A stretch of DNA of 64,000 nucleotides from a virus: the IMG/VR virus record IMGVR_UViG_3300032242_001694; one strand, written 5' to 3'. Positions within the stretch are counted from its first letter, which is position 1. Each line of letters opens with the position of its first letter. Of the stretch, positions 6,649 through 56,889 are shown piece after piece. Position numbers and translations under genes: made by a program. The notes beneath the pieces are model-generated. The model was not told the origin of the DNA and searched no databases. It worked only from the letters and a program-made list of their open reading frames with translations.

Positions 6649-6725
6649 TGGCGACCCCTGCACGACTCGAACGTGCGGCCTACAGATTAGAAGTCTGTTG
6701 CTCTATCCAGCTGAGCTAAGGGGCC
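6649..6725 (-). tRNA. tRNA-Arg(UCU)
   Basis: GGCCCCTTAGCTCAGCTGGATAGAGCAACAGACTTCTAATCTGTAGGCCGCACGTTCGAGTCGTGCAGGGGTCGCCA; anticodon stem ACAGA/TCTGT with loop CT-TCT-AA; encoded CCA. Confidence 0.97.
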
Positions 6726-6785: not shown

Positions 6786-7101
6786 GTGGGGAGATTCTGT
6801 TTCTAAGCTCTCCCCGAGCTCATATTACTTATTTCTTTTCGGCAAATGCCTTGATGGCTTCAGCCAAAGCAAAGATCTCTTCTTCATCTGGATATGCGGG
6901 ATACACTCCAGCGAACCCATCTTCTTTTCTAATTACTGCTTCATTGAATTTAGCGTGGTAGCCATTCTGCAGTTGCTCGCGCGCAGCCATGTAATATTGA
7001 AAGCGCATTTCGTAAGGTGTAGCTGTCATAGTTAGTTCCTTTCTGTGTGTGTTGTGTGTAGTAGTGGGGAGATTCTGTTTCCAAGCTCTCCCCGAGCTCA
7101 T
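6786..7101. repeat. 38-bp direct repeat (6786-6823 and 7064-7101) flanking a small gene
   Basis: GTGGGGAGATTCTGTTTC(T/C)AAGCTCTCCCCGAGCTCAT, one mismatch; forms a GGGGAGA/TCTCCCC hairpin; second copy is the 3' end of the tmRNA gene. Confidence 0.92.
6829..7029 (-). CDS. Small conserved T4-like phage protein (PYE.R...YP..EEI..A family)
   Basis: Likely start MTATPYEMR at 7029, with RBS AAGGA after a CA-rich leader. Confidence 0.7.
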   Translation of the reverse strand: MTATPYEMRFQYYMAAREQLQNGYHAKFNEAVIRKEDGFAGVYPAYPDEEEIFALAEAIKAFAEKK

Positions 7102-7359
7102 TCTTAGGCAGCTAGTGCATAAGAGATAGGTGCATTATCGTTTGCATCTGTAACGTTTGCCATGATCTCAGTAGTACCTTTATCACACCTGTCGATCCTA
7201 TTTCGCCCCCATCAAAGATACACGCGTTTGGATTCGAACCATGTTCTAGTCTTCTCGATCTGCGCTTCCCACAGTGCTGACCCGTGTATCCGTGGTGGAG
7301 GCGGCGGGTACTGCCCCCGCGTCCAGTGTGCCTATGCCGTATACGTCAACGACCATTGC
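7064..7359 (-). ncRNA. ssrA: Circularly permuted (two-piece) tmRNA, alphaproteobacterial type; tag (A)NDNAPISYALAA at 7145-7104
   Basis: Acceptor segment ...GACGCGGGGGCAGTACCCGCCGCCTCCACCA ends at 7293 and precedes the canonical 5' end GGGGGCGAAATAGGATCGAC (starts 7210). Resume codon GCA AAC GAT AAT ... GCT GCC TAA. Confidence 0.93.
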
Positions 7360-7364
7360 AATTC

Positions 7365-7395
7365 TATTTATATCATGTCTTAAGCATTTTGTCAA
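7365..7395 (-). promoter_or_regulatory. Composite sigma70-type/T4-late promoter for tmRNA
   Basis: TTGACA-17 nt-TATAAATA; the -10 box is the T4 gp55 late consensus. Confidence 0.8.
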
Positions 7396-8505
7396 CTATA
7401 AAACTCGCAGCAGGATAGTGTTCTCGTTGAGTCGAGCCGTAAAGCCATTCTCTTTTAAAGTAGCAATCACCTTCTTTAGGTTCATCTTGCCCGCTTTTGC
7501 CACTTCGTCAACAATTTTTGCAGTCTGTCGCCCTGTTTTATAGGATTTTGACTGATTTTCATCAAATTTGTCGATAGAAGTGCCCTTAACTGACAATCCG
7601 CCGCGGTCTAGGGCCACAAAGTGTGTCAAAAACCCATATTTTGTGTTAAAAGTCCACAATTCTTGGGCTCCGATGACTTTTGAAGGCGGAATTGAGGCCA
7701 ACTTGTAGTCTTTAGCCTCTTTTTGGAACTTGAAGCCCTTGAGAAGCTTGTCAACCGACACGGTCTTGGGCTTACGGACTGCCCGAGTCTTCTTGGCTAC
7801 CCCTGCGTAGCGCTCACAGTCGTCGATAAGTCGGGCAATATACTCCATCCGAGCCTTGAGCTGACGAGCCGTGTAGTTCTTATAGCCCTCGAGCACGGCT
7901 TTGTCGCCATAGACACCCAGGGCTAGCTCTTCGAGGTATGGCTTGTAGTACGCAGCGACTTTTAACGCATGGGCCGGAGGCATCTCGATCTTTTGGAGGT
8001 AGGAGTACATGTTGACCTCCTCTTCTCCATCGATCATGGCCTCAACGTCGCCGATGATGTCGCTGACTTTGTCCTTGACGCGGTCTTGAATAGAAGGTTT
8101 CTCAGCCTTCTTGAGCTCTTCCTTGATCGGAGTGATGTGGACCAAGGCGTTGGTCAAGGCCCGCTCGACGTGGTCTTTCCAGACAGGGGCAGATGGGTGC
8201 TCGGGATCAAGCATCGACAGTCGCGCTGCCCAGCCGGCGTACATAGGCCACCACACGTCGGGAATGCGGTTGAGCTTCTTAGCCACTTCTTTGCGGCCGG
8301 TAGCCTCGAGATACGCCTTGACATAGTCCTTGGAGTCGTTGCGATCGCACATGGCGCTGTACCAAGTGAGAGCCTTCATCTCACTGGCGCGAATCTCCTT
8401 CTGCGTCGGCTCATCACCCATGTACTTGTAGTTGATGATGTATGTCTCAGAGCGAGACTTCTGTGCCTTCTTTTTTGTCTTTAATTGTAGGAGACTCTTT
8501 GCCAT
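7396..8505 (-). CDS. Conserved hypothetical T4-like phage protein (basic, 369 aa)
   Basis: Long ORF; C-terminal LWTFNTK...GLSVKGTSI...RLNENTILL is typical of a T4-like conserved family. Confidence 0.7.
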   Translation of the reverse strand: MAKSLLQLKTKKKAQKSRSETYIINYKYMGDEPTQKEIRASEMKALTWYSAMCDRNDSKDYVKAYLEATGRKEVAKKLNRIPDVWWPMYAGWAARLSMLDPEHPSAPVWKDHVERALTNALVHITPIKEELKKAEKPSIQDRVKDKVSDIIGDVEAMIDGEEEVNMYSYLQKIEMPPAHALKVAAYYKPYLEELALGVYGDKAVLEGYKNYTARQLKARMEYIARLIDDCERYAGVAKKTRAVRKPKTVSVDKLLKGFKFQKEAKDYKLASIPPSKVIGAQELWTFNTKYGFLTHFVALDRGGLSVKGTSIDKFDENQSKSYKTGRQTAKIVDEVAKAGKMNLKKVIATLKENGFTARLNENTILLRVL

Positions 8506-50162: not shown

Positions 50163-50600
50163 TTACGCCTTAGTTACTGACCTAAGCATCCAATCATGCT
50201 TATAGTGTCTATCGATTCTATCCTGTAAGAAGTTGGCTAGACCAACTGCGTTCTCTTTCTCAGCAAGCTTTTGAGTCTCTTTGAGGATCACGATGATCTT
50301 CATGTTGTCTTCTTTAAGCTTTGAAGCCATAGAAAGAGCTGATGGAATATTTATCTCATCTTTAACTACAGAGTCTTCCATGTAGCGAACAAAAGAACCT
50401 GGAGCGTACGCACCCAGAGTCCTAATCTCCTCAGCAATAGGGTCTACCGCTGAGAAGTACTCTTGATACAAGTCACCAAAGAAGTCGTGGAACATTGGAA
50501 ATGTTGGTCCCTCAACGTTCCAGTGGAAGTTGTGTGCCTTGAGGTAGATGGCGAAGGTACTCGCCAACACAACCTTCATCTTTGATACTAGCTCTTCCAT
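50163..50600 (-). CDS. dps: Dps / mini-ferritin
   Basis: K.HNFHWNV.G..F...H, D.IAE.IR.LG, H.K..WML. Confidence 0.92.
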
Positions 50601-50908
50601 TAGTGGCCCTTTGCCTTTTCTGCAGCAGCTTTAGCAGCAGATGCTGCCTTGTCGCCTGCACCTTCCATTGCCTTCTCTACTGACGAAGTCACAGTCGCAG
50701 CAATCCCAGCGTATGGAGTGTTGGCAGTAGCCGAAGCCACTGACTTTTCAAGTACTTGCTCAGCTGCTTTAACACCTGCCTTGACGACAGTGTCTGCATT
50801 CGCGATAACAGCATCCGCTGCCGCGTTCTTAATTACTTCTGCCTGCTCTTTAGACTCTTTACGGAAAGATCTCAAGAAGCTCTTTGCAAATTCTGGTAGC
50901 ATAATCAT
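50600..50908 (-). CDS. Ala-rich hypothetical protein
   Basis: ORF with overlapping neighbours. Confidence 0.6.
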   Translation of the reverse strand: MIMLPEFAKSFLRSFRKESKEQAEVIKNAAADAVIANADTVVKAGVKAAEQVLEKSVASATANTPYAGIAATVTSSVEKAMEGAGDKAASAAKAAAEKAKGH

Positions 50909-51525
50909 TCTCCCTTATAATGTTTCATATTACCCGATGGATCCACGTGAAATGCGTTGAAGTGGACGTCAGGATGGTCTCTTCTCATATTTAGGAAAGC
51001 ATCTAGGTTCGGCTTACTGTCGTCGTACATGCTTACTTTCTTGTATCCGTGCTTCTTAATGTGATCAGAAATAACACTTGCTTTCTTCTCAGCCGGCGAA
51101 GCGCTTCCAGCTATATTACCCACGCGGTGAACGTGGATGCTATTCATGTCCATTCCCTGCCTGCGGAACGTGTCAAGGAACTTATCCTTGTTGTCAAAGT
51201 CAGCTCGAGCAGTCAAGAGATGGACCTTGCTTCCTGGATGCCTGCCGATGTTCTGCTGGATCCTATTGACCCTGTTAATCATGCTTGGAATCGGCTTAGA
51301 CTCTTTGTCAAACTTCTCTGCGTTCTTAAACTCTGAGTAGTCATATGTGTGTCCAGCTGGAAGCCTGTGGGTATTGTACTCGCTGTTTGATAGTCTCTTA
51401 ACAACTTTACCTGAAGGATCCTTGACACCAATCTGAGCAGTGGTGTGCATGAGGGTGTCGTCGATGTCAACGTAGTGAGCGTGACCTCTTCTCTGCTCTT
51501 CAAGGAATCTTCTAAAGCTAATCAT
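50905..51525 (-). CDS. HAD-superfamily phosphatase with IP-like N-terminus
   Basis: DIDDTL, LTAR, K, YDDS..N; starts MISFRRFLEE. Confidence 0.78.
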   Translation of the reverse strand: MISFRRFLEEQRRGHAHYVDIDDTLMHTTAQIGVKDPSGKVVKRLSNSEYNTHRLPAGHTYDYSEFKNAEKFDKESKPIPSMINRVNRIQQNIGRHPGSKVHLLTARADFDNKDKFLDTFRRQGMDMNSIHVHRVGNIAGSASPAEKKASVISDHIKKHGYKKVSMYDDSKPNLDAFLNMRRDHPDVHFNAFHVDPSGNMKHYKGE

Positions 51526-52322
51526 TGGTCCCTCAAGATCTTAACGTGGTGTATTCTATAAGTGGACTTAGTCTTTGGATCTGCATGCTCTTCATAACCT
51601 AGATGCTGTAAAGTCTGGCCTCTCTTGACAATAGACTCATGCTCGTCGCCAAAGTCACTCTCTCCGCTGACATGAGATACTGGATCGCCAGGCTCAACGT
51701 GAATATGCATGATGTGTCTGGTTTCGCCTGGCTTGATATAACCTTCTGCGTAGCCATGCGCCAGAGTCTTGTCGTGTGTTGCCGATATATAAGCGGGCGA
51801 GTGGAGCTTTCCCTCTTCATCGGTATGATCCTGTGGATTAAAAGATAGACCGGAATATAAGCTCATAGGCTTCTTGATCTTATTCTTATCAATCGCGCTG
51901 TCCAATGCCTTATACATTGGTCTTAGATTCTTTTCGTGTGTCTCAGACTTAAAGCCATGAATAAGCGGTCTATTCATGTCCTTGCTGTGATTATCATCGC
52001 CAGTGTAGTGATCTATAATGTCTCTGTGATTATCAGAGAATTTATTATCTTTTTGAAGTTTTGCGCTGATAGCAGCTGGATCTTTACCAAGGTGCTCGTT
52101 GTCGTTTTTCTTCTTCCAGTCAGAGATCATTCCTTGATCGCCGATGTCTTCTTTAAGCTTCTTTAAAAATTTAGAAACACTGGTACCGAGCTGCTTAAAG
52201 TGAATAGGTTCAGGTATGACGCCACTCTTAGGCTCAATCACTCTAGGAGTTGCCTGCCTAAAGTGAATAGCCACTGGAGTAGAACCCATCTTATCCTTTA
52301 AGTATTCACCAAACTTCTTCAT
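51522..52322 (-). CDS. ADP-ribosyltransferase-like protein (Alt/Mod/VIP2 fold)
   Basis: YT.....N..L, LD..I, LYSG, YISAT, EHE..V.RG. Confidence 0.7.
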   Translation of the reverse strand: MKKFGEYLKDKMGSTPVAIHFRQATPRVIEPKSGVIPEPIHFKQLGTSVSKFLKKLKEDIGDQGMISDWKKKNDNEHLGKDPAAISAKLQKDNKFSDNHRDIIDHYTGDDNHSKDMNRPLIHGFKSETHEKNLRPMYKALDSAIDKNKIKKPMSLYSGLSFNPQDHTDEEGKLHSPAYISATHDKTLAHGYAEGYIKPGETRHIMHIHVEPGDPVSHVSGESDFGDEHESIVKRGQTLQHLGYEEHADPKTKSTYRIHHVKILRDQ

Positions 52323-52567
52323 TACTTCTTTCTTAGATCTTCTTGATTGCTTCTAAGATAGTCCGCGCAGGTTGACATGTAGTCAGCAGCGATTGTAATC
52401 TTTGCCTGAACCCACTCGGGCAAGTTTGTGTCTGGCTCGAGCATCGAGTTAACCTGCTGTGAGTTAAACACTATGGATCTAATCTGCGACATAGTCATGT
52501 CACCTTCATAGTCATACTCGCCCTTGTCTTTTGCTTCTTGTAGATTGAATCTCTTAAACGATTTCAT
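52322..52567 (-). CDS. Small probable internal head protein
   Basis: MKSFKRFNLQE; LPEWVQ.KIT.A.DY. Confidence 0.7.
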   Translation of the reverse strand: MKSFKRFNLQEAKDKGEYDYEGDMTMSQIRSIVFNSQQVNSMLEPDTNLPEWVQAKITIAADYMSTCADYLRSNQEDLRKK

Positions 52568-53406
52568 TAGCAGTTCCACTTTCTTAGAGCTTTGTTGATA
52601 CGTGAATCTGGATCATTTGCAGTCTTAGCCGACGTAAGTCTCTTTTTCATCCCACCCATGCGAGCGCAGAATGACTTGCGGCGATTGGCAGCTTTGCTAC
52701 CCTTCTTTAACTTTGATGGCTCAGTGGTCACTGGGGCCTTCAGGTGGCCGCCCGACTCTCTATTGTAGTGGTCTCTGCCTTTTTGAGTCAAGCCGCCAGT
52801 CTCGCTCTTATATCCCTTAGAGTCTTCTTCCATTCCACACTCACAGTCGTCGCAAGAACACTTCTTCTCATTAATAACTTTCTTAATGGTGCTGAGAGTC
52901 TTAGATCTGCCTTGACCTGGAGTGTTATCTTTAAGAATACCGGTTAGCGAGTCGGTACCGACGAAGCGCGATGATGGATCATTTGGATCCTTAGACTGTG
53001 GCTCGCCGGTGGTGTAAGCTTCTGATTGAGAAGCCTTGAGGTCTTTAGCTGTAGGGCGACCTTTTTCGCCAGGCTTACGCATATGCTCGCCTGAGCCATG
53101 CTTGATACGCTCGCGCTTAGCGTGAATATTGTCCCAGAGGCCGCGTTTTTCTGATAAATCGTGATCCATGTGTGCTGCTAACCCTCCAGCGATAAATGAA
53201 TTAACTCTATTATAGGCTGTCTGCTCAGAAAAGTCAACGAGATAACCGCGAACGTACACTTCTCTAAGTGTGTCGAACGGTACACCTGACTGCTGAGACT
53301 TCTTGAATAGGGAGATTACTTGTTTTTCTGACAGTGCCACGGCGGCCGCTGCGTGCTCTACAAAATCTAGCTGAGGACTAGAAAGGAGACTCTTCTCTTT
53401 TGGCAT
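52567..53406 (-). CDS. DUF6321-like domain protein
   Basis: GLW.NIHAKR.R and RRKSFCARM.G...SRINKALRKWNC. Confidence 0.7.
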   Translation of the reverse strand: MPKEKSLLSSPQLDFVEHAAAAVALSEKQVISLFKKSQQSGVPFDTLREVYVRGYLVDFSEQTAYNRVNSFIAGGLAAHMDHDLSEKRGLWDNIHAKRERIKHGSGEHMRKPGEKGRPTAKDLKASQSEAYTTGEPQSKDPNDPSSRFVGTDSLTGILKDNTPGQGRSKTLSTIKKVINEKKCSCDDCECGMEEDSKGYKSETGGLTQKGRDHYNRESGGHLKAPVTTEPSKLKKGSKAANRRKSFCARMGGMKKRLTSAKTANDPDSRINKALRKWNC

Positions 53407-53468
53407 TGGTGTTTCCCTTAGGCTTAACCAAGAACAAGCAGGACTGCCGTGGCTTTCTGCAACAAAAC

Positions 53469-53476
53469 TATTTATA
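53469..53476 (-). promoter_or_regulatory. T4-type late promoter
   Basis: TATAAATA. Confidence 0.8.
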
Positions 53477-54091
53477 TTATTTCTTCTTTTGCATGCCTGC
53501 TGCTATGTCGTTGTAGAGCTCCTCGCTGTGCTGAGGATGGAGAGATCCGTATCTCTTCTGGAACTCTTCTTTATTGCCAGTCGCGACTAAGTTTCTAATC
53601 TTAGTAGCTGACTCGGCGTCGCCGTCTCTCTCGCCAGCTGAGACTACCCTGATGCCATTCTTGTAGTTAAATGGAACGTTACCTTTCTTATCAGGCTGGC
53701 CATTATATCTATTGAATAGGTCTTGGTACTCTTTTACGCGATCATCGCCTGCCACTACAGTCAAGTGGTCGTGACCTTCTCTATTTAGCCTAGCCGCGTG
53801 ATGAATCAGAGTTGGGTGAGCGCTGTCTGCCATTGTAATGTTAGTATTAGGAAAGATACGCTTTGCATGCTTAAGCTTCTGAGCTGGAGTGAGCGGGTTC
53901 TTCTCGTCTCCAGTGGTGTGACTCAATACGACTTCGTGTCTAGCACCCATCTGATTGGCTAAGCTCTTTACAGTATTGACCAACTTGCCGTGACCGGCTT
54001 CAGTCGGTGGCTGCATTCTACCAAACGCCATAACTGCAGGATTCTCTCCGTAGCCGGTATCTTCTTTTATGAATGATAGGAATCTTTTCAT
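53477..54091 (-). CDS. HIGH-superfamily cytidyl/adenylyltransferase with IP-like N-terminus
   Basis: FGRMQPPT..GH.KL, KNPL, V.G.DR, SAT..R; starts MKRFLSFIKE. Confidence 0.8.
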   Translation of the reverse strand: MKRFLSFIKEDTGYGENPAVMAFGRMQPPTEAGHGKLVNTVKSLANQMGARHEVVLSHTTGDEKNPLTPAQKLKHAKRIFPNTNITMADSAHPTLIHHAARLNREGHDHLTVVAGDDRVKEYQDLFNRYNGQPDKKGNVPFNYKNGIRVVSAGERDGDAESATKIRNLVATGNKEEFQKRYGSLHPQHSEELYNDIAAGMQKKK

Positions 54092-55359
54092 TTCTTTGCC
54101 TTTGACATGAAGCCGTAACCGGCGAGATTGTAACCAGCAAAACCGCCTGGTTTATCTTCAGTTGGTGGGCTTTGATCTACCAACTTCTGCATGTTACCTT
54201 GATCGTCGGTGTGAACGTAGCCTTCGTGACCGGTAGCGATTCCACCGATACTCGTTCCCGCTGTCTTACCTTTATCCATTACTCTAACGAGAACGTTCTT
54301 AGCATTAGCCAAGTGCTTGTCGAGATCCATTCCTCTTTGGAAGTGCTCGCGATTCTGATGAACGTACTGAAGCTGGTCGTTAAGAGCAGCTGATCTCTTA
54401 TCTTTAGCAGCCTGTGTCTTAACCTTGTCCATATCTTTCTGAGCAGCGCCGGTCAAGTGCTGGATGTAACCATCTACCGATGCCTCTTCAGGCTTAGTCT
54501 TTGGATCCCTGGTTGCATTTCTTCTAATGATGCTATTCATATAAGTTTCAAGAGGAATGGCATGACCACCGATTGCATCTAGAGCTTCAGGCTTCATCGA
54601 TGCATACGTCTTTCTAGCCAGCTCTTTATGGGCGTGAAACTCTCTTTGATCTTCTGGTGTGAAGTGATCTGGATTTGGCTTGAAGTCTGTGCTCATCATA
54701 TCGACATCAGGGTGTGACTTGAAGTCAGAGTCTCTAACGTCTGGTGTAGCAACCATGCTTGCCAGATCATTTCCCTTATAGCGGGTATGCATGGCAAGAC
54801 CGATCTTTGCAGCGAGAGCTTTCTTACCCTCAGCCGAGTTCCTATCATGAGAATACTCAACGGTGTTTGGCTGGTACTTTACTTGACCATGCTCAACTTG
54901 AATATCTTTCTTACCGGAGTGAGTGAAGTCTCCTTGCCAAACTTGATCAGGAAACCTGCCTCCGACGCTCTTGCGATCCGGAAGAACCTTATGAACGTTA
55001 TCTAGTAAGTCATGAAGCTTTGCTGCTAATCCAGGTGCATGGCCGTGATTGCGGTCAATGTCTTCATGTGTAAAGTTTAACTTGGGATCTTTATTAAAGA
55101 CTGACTTACTGCCGATAAAACGCTCGCCGGTTTCAGGATGATAGCCAGCCACAACCGCTGGCGCGCCGTCAACTTTAGTCTTAAAATGATGTCCTGGAGT
55201 CTCTTGTCCGGTAAGATGTTTAGCAGTCGCTTCAAGTGAGTTGACTGATCTCGCCACGCCGTCGTGACCGCCCGTAATGTGAAGTCTATTGACATGCTGT
55301 AAGTGCTTAAGCTTGTCTTCGTTTACTTCTTCTAATAAGTACTGATAAAAGCTTTTCAT
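54088..55359 (-). CDS. DUF6267-like protein with ATP-dependent ligase motifs
   Basis: KVDGAP, QGD, EGYV, KLVD; starts MKSFYQYLLEE. Confidence 0.7.
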   Translation of the reverse strand: MKSFYQYLLEEVNEDKLKHLQHVNRLHITGGHDGVARSVNSLEATAKHLTGQETPGHHFKTKVDGAPAVVAGYHPETGERFIGSKSVFNKDPKLNFTHEDIDRNHGHAPGLAAKLHDLLDNVHKVLPDRKSVGGRFPDQVWQGDFTHSGKKDIQVEHGQVKYQPNTVEYSHDRNSAEGKKALAAKIGLAMHTRYKGNDLASMVATPDVRDSDFKSHPDVDMMSTDFKPNPDHFTPEDQREFHAHKELARKTYASMKPEALDAIGGHAIPLETYMNSIIRRNATRDPKTKPEEASVDGYIQHLTGAAQKDMDKVKTQAAKDKRSAALNDQLQYVHQNREHFQRGMDLDKHLANAKNVLVRVMDKGKTAGTSIGGIATGHEGYVHTDDQGNMQKLVDQSPPTEDKPGGFAGYNLAGYGFMSKAKK

Positions 55360-56681
55360 TGTGACTTCTCGCTAGGTCCGTAAAAATCATTTCCACCATG
55401 TTCTCCATGGCCTTCGCTGGTAACTGGCTGTTTAACTTTTTTTGCTTTAGGTGCTGCCGGAGCCGGAGGCATATTAACTTCCGGAGGAGGCGCAGCTTTC
55501 TTTGCAGCGAGTCTCTGTTGTTTATCTAGTTCTCTCTGTTGCTTTCTTGCGATAGCATCAGCTTCCAGTTTCTTAGCATGATTAAATAAATCTTTTTTGA
55601 CACCTTGTGAAGATGTGACTGGAATACTGTTTCTATACTGATGATTACCTTTTGAGATAATCATGATGCGTCCGCCGGATCCTTTTTGATCCGTATCTCT
55701 ATCTCTTCTGACAACTACTTTAGATGGAATCATTTCAGAGCAATCGTCATTTGTATTTACATGCTGGTGAGTAAGAGGATGGAGATCCATGGTAGGAATA
55801 CCTCTATGATTCCTGCCTTCTGGATCTGAGACTGCAGCCGGCATGAAATGCATCGATCCTTGAATAACGGAGTGCACGTTATTGACTCCATAATTACTGC
55901 CGTGATCTTTACCATACATGGCTCTGTGAACAATCTTTCTTTGCTCGGGATCGCTGTCGTCTAAGTCGTGATGGTATATCAAGCCTTCTGGTACCGTATC
56001 GTATCCTTGATTATTTTTATGCTTTCTAAACATGCCAGCAATTTTATCTAGTACCGGATGATCCTTGCCATTGACTTCGTGATCTTGAAGACCTCCGAGC
56101 TGTTGGAAACCACCTGCAGCTTTCAATGAATGCCATGATACCGGATTGCCATGTTCATCATGTAAGAACATGTCAGCTTTTGGCTTTGCACCTCTGTGCC
56201 CATACTGATTTGCAATTTCTTTAGTAACACGCTGTGCACCGGCAACATTTACAAACTTACCACCACCAATGTGGAGTCTCATATAAGGAGCGTTGCCTTT
56301 TGCTTTATTGATTGCGTCTTGAATATTGTTCATCTGATCGGCTTCTGCCGCTTCTTGGTCTTTACCAACTCTTCCGCCGGTCGGTTTATAGAACTTGCTC
56401 ATTGGTATGTGGTGTTCATTACCAGCATCGTCATGATGAATACCGTGCCAGTCTCCATTAATATTCTTAACACCGCTGAGTCTTACTACGTCACCGGCTT
56501 GTAAACCAGATTTTTTATGATCTGCCGAAAGAGTCCAGTCATTTCCATGTTTATCCATAGCTTCTGGACCATAGTAAACTTTATGATCGTAAGTACCTCT
56601 TTTACTATCAACTTTAGAAGATAGTGTACCGCGAGATGCTATGGGACCTCTCTCAATTAAATATTCTCTGAAGCTATACAT
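55356..56681 (-). CDS. Probable internal head protein with PD-(D/E)XK-like core
   Basis: PKAD...SLK; starts MYSFREYLIE. Confidence 0.6.
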   Translation of the reverse strand: MYSFREYLIERGPIASRGTLSSKVDSKRGTYDHKVYYGPEAMDKHGNDWTLSADHKKSGLQAGDVVRLSGVKNINGDWHGIHHDDAGNEHHIPMSKFYKPTGGRVGKDQEAAEADQMNNIQDAINKAKGNAPYMRLHIGGGKFVNVAGAQRVTKEIANQYGHRGAKPKADMFLHDEHGNPVSWHSLKAAGGFQQLGGLQDHEVNGKDHPVLDKIAGMFRKHKNNQGYDTVPEGLIYHHDLDDSDPEQRKIVHRAMYGKDHGSNYGVNNVHSVIQGSMHFMPAAVSDPEGRNHRGIPTMDLHPLTHQHVNTNDDCSEMIPSKVVVRRDRDTDQKGSGGRIMIISKGNHQYRNSIPVTSSQGVKKDLFNHAKKLEADAIARKQQRELDKQQRLAAKKAAPPPEVNMPPAPAAPKAKKVKQPVTSEGHGEHGGNDFYGPSEKSQ

Positions 56682-56708: not shown

Positions 56709-56716
56709 TATTTATA
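56709..56716 (-). promoter_or_regulatory. T4-type late promoter heading the internal-protein block
   Basis: TATAAATA. Confidence 0.82.
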
Positions 56717-56721
56717 AAATA

Positions 56722-56751
56722 GAAAAAGGGACGAGCCCATAGACTCGTCCC
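56722..56751 (-). terminator. Rho-independent terminator
   Basis: GGGACGAG-TCTATGGG-CTCGTCCC-TTTTT. Confidence 0.85.
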
Positions 56752-56864
56752 CCTCAGTTCTAGATTGGTATGGTCGAGTGGAACCCCACCATGCGTCTCG
56801 ACTCTTCCTGACTTTTACATCTTGCCTCTTGCTCTGCAGTAGCAATACATACCATTTCTAGAAT
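56722..56864 (-). ncRNA. Candidate structured small RNA
   Basis: Own TATAAATA (56866-56873) and own terminator; long closing helix TTCTAGA.ATGGTATG / CATACCAA.TCTAGAA. Confidence 0.7.
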
Positions 56865-56889
56865 CTATTTATATGATACTGATGATTTT

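Follow-up and report, generated by a model that had tools for sequence, protein, structure and literature searches.

The closest structures to the protein described here are those of RNA ligases, a group to which the T4 enzymes Rnl1 (gp63) and Rnl2 belong, and repair of the T4 heal-and-seal type requires a 5′-kinase in addition to a ligase. In the capsid targeting sequence of T4, residues 4 and 7 serve targeting and residues 8 and 10 direct processing by gp21 (PMC9026906; also PMC3012670). Homologues of the T4 DNA ligase gene, g30, have not been found in cyanomyoviruses, for which S-PM2_138, a member of the DUF6267 family, and S-PM2_141, a ‘possible cytidyltransferase’, are listed as signature genes of unknown function (PMC2984593). 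Here we analyse a DUF6267 protein of 423 amino acids (aa) encoded at 54088–55359 in a 64,000-nucleotide stretch of viral DNA (IMG/VR record IMGVR_UViG_3300032242_001694; ‘the window’ below), the source of which is a T4-like aquatic phage. The open reading frame (ORF) is exact, begins with ATG and lies on the minus strand, as do all the features of the window given below.

From the fold, the motif conservation, the fusion link to a neighbouring enzyme, the leader pattern and the promoters that we observe, we infer a catalytic activity, a packaging route and a substrate. The reading that we favour overall, with a probability of about 0.45, is that the protein is a packaged, divergent ATP-dependent polynucleotide-ligase-type enzyme that acts with a HIGH-motif nucleotidyltransferase partner in the repair of nucleic-acid ends.

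A predicted ligase-type fold in the DUF6267 protein

The protein matched PF19782 (DUF6267) over residues 18–396 with 244.6 bits, against a gathering cut-off of 27 bits, and also matched PHROG 455, which has no assigned function. The family comprises at least 428 relatives in a 90%-identity collection, 2,876 representatives at 50% identity and 594 IMG/VR stretches, and it occurs in 407 phage genome records, mostly of Synechococcus and Prochlorococcus myophages, in all of which it is annotated as hypothetical. No publication in the literature that we searched mentions DUF6267 or S-PM2d138, and T4-GC 71, cytidylyl- and internal proteins go unmentioned in Sullivan et al. (2010). Megablast of the 8.5-kb region against phage genomes gave no match.

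An AlphaFold2 model built from an alignment had a pLDDT of 91.2 and a pTM of 0.88, with only residues 1–17 disordered. When the model was compared exhaustively with 48,161 representative chains of the Protein Data Bank (PDB), the top 12 matches were all ligase nucleotidyltransferase domains, with roughly 185–203 aligned residues each. The Z scores were 7.8 for Trypanosoma REL1 (1xdn), 7.4 for T4 Rnl2 (1s68), Naegleria NgrRnl and Trl1, 7.3 for T4 Rnl1 (9do4; 7.1 for 5tt6), 6.4 for archaeal Rnl3 and at most 5.7 for DNA ligases, values of 7–8 being ones that the tool warns can occur without homology. A second comparison, made among Foldseek candidates, was led by 13 RNA ligases (NgrRnl, or Rnl5, 6vt0, reached Z 8.2 over 188 residues); DNA ligases scored at most 6.2, and ligases occupied 49 of the 50 rows. 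The ATP-dependent DNA ligases T4 gp30, Chlorella virus ligase and human LIG1 shared the superfamily fold at Z 4.8–6.2, below the RNA ligases. The ligase alignments cover about 190–200 residues and span residues 16–410.

An initial annotation of this DNA, made from its letters and ORF translations, had called covalent nucleotidyltransferase (RNA-ligase-like) motifs in the protein. The four strings on which it relied are present in the 54088–55359 ORF in the order given, KVDG at residues 62–65, VWQGD at 140–144, HEGYV at 378–382 and QKLVD at 391–395, and they fall on near-invariant columns. Alignment A1 (28 sequences, 38–84% identity) shows no variation at K62, D64, G65, Q142, D144, E379, G380, V382 and K392, and a conservation of 90% or more at G143. 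In a wider set of 151 diverse members, the three residues of the motif I KxDG are kept in 145 of 147 (K62), 143 of 147 (D) and 144 of 149 (G) sequences, position 144 is acidic (D or E) in all 151, and E379, G380 and K392 are conserved in 140/144, 142/144 and 141/143 respectively. The nucleotide-binding motif residues are thus 95–100% conserved across 151 divergent members, the window protein included, a pattern characteristic of an active site under selection.

The motifs compare closely with those of the T4 RNA ligases. Motif I (K62-V-D-G, 55165–55176) lies in a T-K-x-D-G-[AS] string as at K99 of T4 Rnl1 (T-K62-V-D-G-A here, T-K99-E-D-G-S there), and Lys62 is predicted to be the AMP-accepting lysine. 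About 20 residues further on, S-K85-S forms a motif Ia-like counterpart to K-S-K119-G-S of Rnl1. The motif III-like element Q142-G-D144 (54928–54936) is in the β-strand 140–147, where QVWQGD144F resembles QVFGE99F of T4 Rnl2; it has Asp in place of the Glu of Rnl1. Motif IV (E379-G-Y-V) and motif V (K392) together form a β-hairpin (54184–54225) with an E-to-K spacing of 13 residues, and E379-GYV-x5-G-x3-K392 aligns with E227-GYV-x5-G-x3-K240 of Rnl1, the Gly being at +9 and the Lys of motif V at +13 in both. In the model, motifs I, III, IV and V occupy the β-strands expected for ligases (those at 140–147 and 380–384 among them). Because one superfamily monopolizes the structural list and motifs I, Ia, III, IV and V are collinear, we find the assignment convincing, and from the model we consider it likely that the DUF6267 protein is a ligase-superfamily nucleotidyltransferase, with RNA ligases its closest structures, as had been proposed.

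The architecture differs from that of each described ligase type, and in our view DUF6267 is a family of its own, new and with a distinct architecture, in the known ligase superfamily. An all-helical insertion of about 130 residues (residues ~235–362, 54274–54657) separates the first half of the fold from motifs IV and V, with helices modelled at 235–253, 259–264, 267–283, 295–311, 316–335 and 337–362; in T4 Rnl1, Rnl2 and Trl1, by contrast, the helical domains are C-terminal, appended rather than inserted before motif IV. The protein gave no match at E ≤ 0.1 to the Rnl1 family (PF09511) or to the Rnl2 families (PF09414 and PF18043), so that despite the structural likeness it differs in domain content from the nick-sealing RNA ligases as well as from Rnl1. 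After motif V there are only some 30 residues, forming two short helices, and unlike the ATP-dependent DNA ligases the protein has no OB-fold, no motif VI and no match to PF01068 or an OB family. The family also has invariant residues that are atypical of ligases, H19, H22, N104-H105 and H191-T192. The DUF6267 profile found no match in T4, in a search run without a positive control.

A HIGH-motif partner fused or adjacent to the DUF6267 protein

The gene that follows, at 53477–54091, overlaps the DUF6267 stop by 4 nt and encodes a 204-aa HIGH-motif cytidylyltransferase-like nucleotidyltransferase that appears as a split-off partner domain with a leader of its own. It matched phrog_3041 ‘cytidyltransferase’ at 2.7e-40, and the two signatures of HIGH-motif nucleotidyltransferases, (T/H)xGH and S-x-x-x-x-R, are retained. 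Its best profile match in the PDB was MJ0951/UPF0348 (E = 4e-4), with weak matches to PPAT and NadR.

The two proteins are joined in many relatives. The PHROG 455 profile, of 764 positions, spans both the DUF6267 protein and the 204-aa partner, and many homologs of 590–720 aa carry a C-terminal cytidylyltransferase-like domain (PF01467); in other fused homologs this domain is N-terminal, and one has a Pol-beta nucleotidyltransferase and one a LysM domain. The partner is 53% identical to residues 406–596 of the fused homolog P0111, the similarity beginning at partner residue 10. We surveyed 80 IMG/VR loci, from which the partner, HAD, leader, kinase and neighbour counts in this report are taken. 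Among them, 20 have the partner fused and 51 have it as an adjacent gene; of the 69 loci with enough sequence to judge, 66 show one or the other arrangement. A frameshift artefact as the cause of the split was considered and rejected, given the separate genes in 51/80 loci and the leader on the second half. A separate leader there is as expected if each polypeptide needs its own targeting.

Fusion or adjacency with the HIGH-motif enzyme is the strongest functional association of DUF6267, and it is one that the initial annotation did not mention. We think it very likely that the two proteins are functionally coupled.

A T4-type capsid targeting leader and late promoters

The first ten codons of the DUF6267 gene (55330–55359) encode MKSFYQYLLE, a leader of the type found on T4 internal proteins, with a predicted prohead-protease site after Glu10. 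The starts of T4 ipII and ipIII (MKTYQEFIAE) agree with it at positions 4, 7, 8 and 10, and IPI, IPII, IPIII and Alt share with it a ten-residue leader that is aromatic at 4 and 7, aliphatic at 8 and acidic at 10, together with a late promoter. We searched all ORFs of at least 50 aa in the six frames of the window with the pattern M-x-x-[FYW]-x-x-[FYWL]-[LIVM]-x-[ED], and found it at exactly five ORF starts, all adjacent to one another (50905–56681). These belong to a HAD phosphatase, an Alt-like ADP-ribosyltransferase, the cytidylyltransferase-like protein, the DUF6267 protein and a 441-aa protein. F4 and E10 are invariant in alignment A1, and the leader or a form shorter by one residue is present in 64/80 homologs. 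In the AlphaFold model the leader residues are inside the disordered N-terminus (1–17).

The Alt-like ADP-ribosyltransferase, of 266 aa (51522–52322; PF03496 at 2.6e-7), has Asp at position 10 of its leader. T4 IPIII with Asp at position 10 is targeted and its cleavage is blocked (PMC9026906). The clustering of such genes, one of them for an Alt-like enzyme, is a further likeness to the T4 internal proteins and Alt; the putative cargo here differs from theirs in comprising a ligase-like protein, a HIGH-motif nucleotidyltransferase, a HAD phosphatase, an ADP-ribosyltransferase and the 441-aa protein.

The 441-aa gene (55356–56681), whose product has no assigned function, is the first of a three-gene late unit and overlaps the DUF6267 start by 4 nt. 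A T4-type late promoter, TATAAATA, is present at 56709–56716, about 28 nt upstream of its ATG, and a second TATAAATA at 53469–53476, directly after the cytidylyltransferase-like stop, heads the downstream leader-bearing genes. The motif occurs seven times in the window, against 1.9 expected, and none of 100 shuffles reached seven. Upstream of the S-PM2 gene, at 24 nt, is AATAAATA, which fits NATAAATA, the late consensus reported for S-PM2 (PMC2984593).

Packaging and injection are plausible because a leader resembling the T4 capsid targeting sequence is combined with late promoters, and to that extent the virion delivery suggested in the initial annotation holds. Judged from the leader sequence, capsid targeting of the DUF6267 protein in this lineage is somewhat more probable than its absence. 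We know of neither a HIGH-motif nucleotidyltransferase partner nor a capsid-targeting leader for T4 Rnl1, whereas the DUF6267 protein has both.

A HAD phosphatase resembling the T4 Pnkp 3′-phosphatase domain

The initial annotation had further pointed to a nearby HAD protein with a DIDDT string and likened it to the 3′-phosphatase domain of T4 Pnkp. The 206-aa HAD phosphatase ORF (50905–51525) is real and carries a leader, and its family keeps the four HAD catalytic motifs (D20xD22xT24, T105, K148 and D168-D169). Its model had a pLDDT of 90.1, and among the 48,161 chains its best structural match was the T4 Pnkp 3′-phosphatase domain (5uj0_B, Z 13.7, rmsd 2.7 Å, 134/142 residues aligned). Full T4 Pnkp (1ltq, Z 12.8) and 4xrp_A, the Pnkp1 of the bacterial Pnkp1/Rnl/Hen1 RNA-repair complex (Z 12.6), ranked second and fourth, and the protein matched phrog_415 ‘polynucleotide kinase’ at 1.8e-5. 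Other HAD proteins came within 1–2 Z units of Pnkp, and Foldseek ranked Lem4 and AphA first and T4 Pnkp 33rd. Neither the protein nor its profile found anything relevant among PDB sequences, and the protein gave no match in T4, in a search without a positive control. We conclude from the models that the resemblance to the T4 Pnkp phosphatase is real and not exclusive.

HAD homologs are present on the same strand in 43/80 loci, and in 14 of the 23 loci with long flanks. The family is absent from three near-complete (96–99%) DUF6267-bearing genomes and from S-PM2 and HTVC008M, in a search that found four of four positive controls, and we therefore describe the phosphatase as an optional companion. 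The operon as a whole resembles T4 Pnkp and bacterial Pnkp1-Rnl-Hen1 in having a ligase-fold enzyme and a Pnkp-like HAD phosphatase; it differs in having neither a kinase domain nor a Hen1 methyltransferase, and in that the phosphatase is dispensable in many relatives.

Downstream of its DUF6267 ortholog, at a distance of two genes, HTVC008M encodes a Zeta-toxin/AAA_33 P-loop kinase (L002 7724–8386). Next comes a 596-aa protein in which DUF5824 is combined with a cytidylyltransferase-like domain, and beyond that, in the downstream direction, an NT5C-type HAD. A homolog of this kinase was found in only one of the 80 loci.

Other ligases in related genomes

Searches with PF01068 and PF01653 found no DNA ligase in S-PM2 or HTVC008M, and T4 was positive for its ATP-dependent ligase. 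PF01068 was likewise absent from the three near-complete relatives. Domains of the Rnl1 and Rnl2 types were found in none of these five genomes, with T4 again positive. Since PF01068 and the Rnl1/Rnl2 domains are absent from all five, and PF01653 from S-PM2 and HTVC008M, the DUF6267 protein is the only ligase-fold protein detected in them. Phage G005 (L090, on the same contig as L024) carries, some 19 kb from DUF6267, a domain of the classical ATP-dependent DNA ligases as well (PF01068, 1e-19).

The surrounding locus

In the window, gp43 DNA polymerase, UvsX and the gp41 helicase are encoded on the same strand upstream of the DUF6267 gene, and the orthologs in S-PM2, a Synechococcus phage, and HTVC008M, a Pelagibacter phage, stand in the matching order gp43-UvsX-gp41-(MazG)-ortholog. 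Two TATAAATA motifs enclose some 150 nt (56722–56873) that end, just upstream of the leader operon, in a GC-rich hairpin and a T-run and that matched no Rfam family at the gathering threshold. At the equivalent position in S-PM2, directly upstream of the DUF6267 ortholog, there is a tRNA-Ser(TGA).

The 441-aa protein matched only PHROGs without a function and has homologs in 5/80 related loci; it had no Pfam, NCBIfam or PDB (phmmer) match, and its look-alikes in the ESM Atlas, like those of the DUF6267 protein, were only unnamed viral clusters and noise-level restriction-enzyme leads. The idea that it is the missing kinase was rejected for want of a Walker A motif and of any family match.

Located after the cytidylyltransferase-like gene is that of a 279-aa protein with a C-terminal DUF6321 domain (52567–53406). 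Its homologs lie downstream of the DUF6267 and cytidylyltransferase-like genes in 43/80 loci, and HTVC008M has a protein with a similar N-terminal motif at the same place; the DUF6321 protein could thus belong to the module as its third conserved component. A Dps/ferritin-like protein (50163–50600; PF00210, 9e-23) has no leader although it is encoded within the late, leader-bearing block, and has homologs in 30/80 loci.

Further away, at 7063–7399, is a permuted two-piece tmRNA of alphaproteobacterial type (RF01849, 123.6 bits; tag ANDNAPISYALAA), adjoined by a tRNA-Arg(TCT) at 6649–6725. The tmRNA suggests that the host may be an alphaproteobacterium and that the phage may supply its own ribosome rescue.

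Discussion

In the course of events that we propose, a T4-type late promoter would drive a trio of translationally coupled genes, with that for DUF6267 in the middle. The product probably enters the prohead core, loses its residues up to Glu10 to the prohead protease and reaches the host cell together with the injected DNA. In catalysis, a covalent Lys-NMP would arise from the attack of Lys62 (motif I) on a nucleotide triphosphate, and the NMP would be passed to a 5′-phosphate end that is subsequently joined to a 3′-OH. The partner of the DUF6267 protein would be the HIGH-motif nucleotidyltransferase of the next gene downstream, the two forming one chain in many relatives, and in this phage a Pnkp-type 3′-phosphatase may be delivered as well. 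The likeliest task would be the repair or joining of broken nucleic-acid ends at the onset of infection, with RNA as the favoured substrate.

Several results weigh against this reading. Apart from the caution that attaches to the Z scores, the check by AlphaFold and Foldseek that the initial annotation had proposed gave a confident ligase-like model and a PDB list topped by ligases, but none of these at E ≤ 0.001. The Pfam search found no ligase family at E ≤ 0.1, phmmer and profile hmmsearch with the DUF6267 family found nothing relevant in the PDB, and hhalign against the T4 Rnl2-family profile gave a probability of 0.05, both alignments being shallow and of low diversity. Motif V does not have the KxK form: K392 is its only lysine, position +2 is Val, and the second lysine (K242 in T4 Rnl1) is absent throughout the family. 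Codon 396 (54172–54174), four residues after K392, is Gln here and in the closest relatives and Arg in 134/142 members, which could be a lineage-specific change of activity. As to a 5′-kinase, the operon has no Walker A motif, the 206-aa HAD protein consists of the HAD domain alone, and no AAA_33 match reached the cut-off in the near-complete relatives. The S-PM2 and HTVC008M orthologs have no leader, and in-frame stops just upstream of their start codons led us to reject its presence in all orthologs; packaging is therefore not a property of the whole family. DUF6267 is close to universal in cyanomyoviruses (PMC2984593), which would be unusual for an accessory counter-defence gene. Finally, the part that a cytidylyltransferase-like partner would play in any ligation pathway is unexplained.

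The initial annotation had combined the ligase and the HAD phosphatase into a complete, pre-packaged heal-and-seal system of the T4 kind for repairing tRNA cut by anticodon nucleases. Its two ingredients, the RNA-ligase-like fold and the HAD protein with T4 Pnkp as best match, Pnkp1 at rank 4 and a phrog_415 hit, are borne out; both proteins have a leader, the HAD gene shares the strand in 43/80 loci, and HTVC008M offers a P-loop kinase two genes downstream of DUF6267. The system as such nevertheless seems distinctly unlikely to us, since the operon lacks a kinase, the HTVC008M kinase has its single homolog among the 80 loci and AAA_33 stays below cut-off in the near-complete relatives, the HAD family is missing from five DUF6267-bearing genomes in a search with working controls, other HAD families lie within 1–2 Z units with Lem4 and AphA ahead in Foldseek, and no anticodon nuclease is known for the host. 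The wider idea of RNA repair keeps RNA ligases as the closest structures and has to be set beside a possible role in DNA ligation. With no second ligase detected in S-PM2, HTVC008M or the three near-complete relatives, the ‘missing cyanomyovirus DNA ligase’ has to be taken seriously as a rival reading: DUF6267 would be the phage’s own DNA ligase, an unrecognised analogue of T4 gp30 that seals Okazaki fragments and nicks, of which a copy is additionally pre-packaged in this lineage. The position of the gene beside gp41, UvsX and gp43 in all three phages compared, its occurrence in 407 phage records and the status of S-PM2_138 as a signature gene in phages without g30 homologues (PMC2984593) suit such a role. 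It is harder to reconcile with RNA ligases scoring above DNA ligases, with the ~30 residues after motif V that leave out an OB-fold domain, with late-type promoters before the gene here and in S-PM2 where a replicative ligase is expected early, with the classical PF01068 ligase that phage G005 has besides DUF6267, and with a cytidylyltransferase-like partner, which has no known role alongside DNA ligases; we hold it to be unlikely.

A third possibility keeps the fold and changes the chemistry. The ligase fold may serve a reaction that joins no strands, with the HIGH-motif nucleotidyltransferase and DUF6267 catalysing the two steps of one pathway; for example, a nucleotide-linked donor or an activated nucleic-acid end might be made or activated by the partner, and DUF6267 might transfer a nucleotidyl group to the end of a nucleic acid or to another acceptor in a capping-like or AMPylation-like manner. 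Consistent with this, the fusion or adjacency is near-obligate and occurs in both domain orders, with one fusion to a Pol-beta nucleotidyltransferase; motif V is non-canonical and the invariant histidines and their neighbours (H19, H22, N104-H105, H191-T192) are additional to the ligase set; a 130-residue helical insertion takes the place of the usual appended domains; and the partner is closest to MJ0951/UPF0348, then weakly to PPAT and NadR. Yet every close structural neighbour is a true strand-joining ligase, the motif set is that of the three-step ligation reaction, and no result points to a specific alternative substrate, so we give this explanation small weight. That the protein is a catalytically inert internal head protein which merely retains a ligase-derived fold appears very improbable: internal proteins of T4 are in many cases small inhibitors without enzymatic activity (PMC3012670), and Gln at the family Arg396 and the absent second lysine of motif V would fit, but the nucleotide-binding residues are 95–100% conserved among the 151 members, the window protein included. 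We raise one further reading as a speculation that we do not rate highly. DUF6267 and its HIGH-motif partner might be a previously unrecognised two-enzyme polynucleotide-joining system, either the ‘missing’ cyanomyovirus ligase or a kinase-independent RNA repair in which the HIGH-motif enzyme activates the phosphate end, used in some lineages as injected cargo by means of a leader on each half.

Marine T4-like cyanophages have DUF6267 as one of their signature genes, and it has had no assigned function; we place it here as a likely member of the ligase superfamily, and a new ligase family could also serve molecular biology as a reagent. The assignment makes three ideas testable: that these abundant phages have a replacement for the absent gp30 DNA ligase; that there is a new family of RNA ligases that have a helical module inside the fold and a HIGH-motif nucleotidyltransferase as their obligate partner; and that T4-like phages beyond the coliphages use the capsid targeting sequence to inject kits of enzymes.

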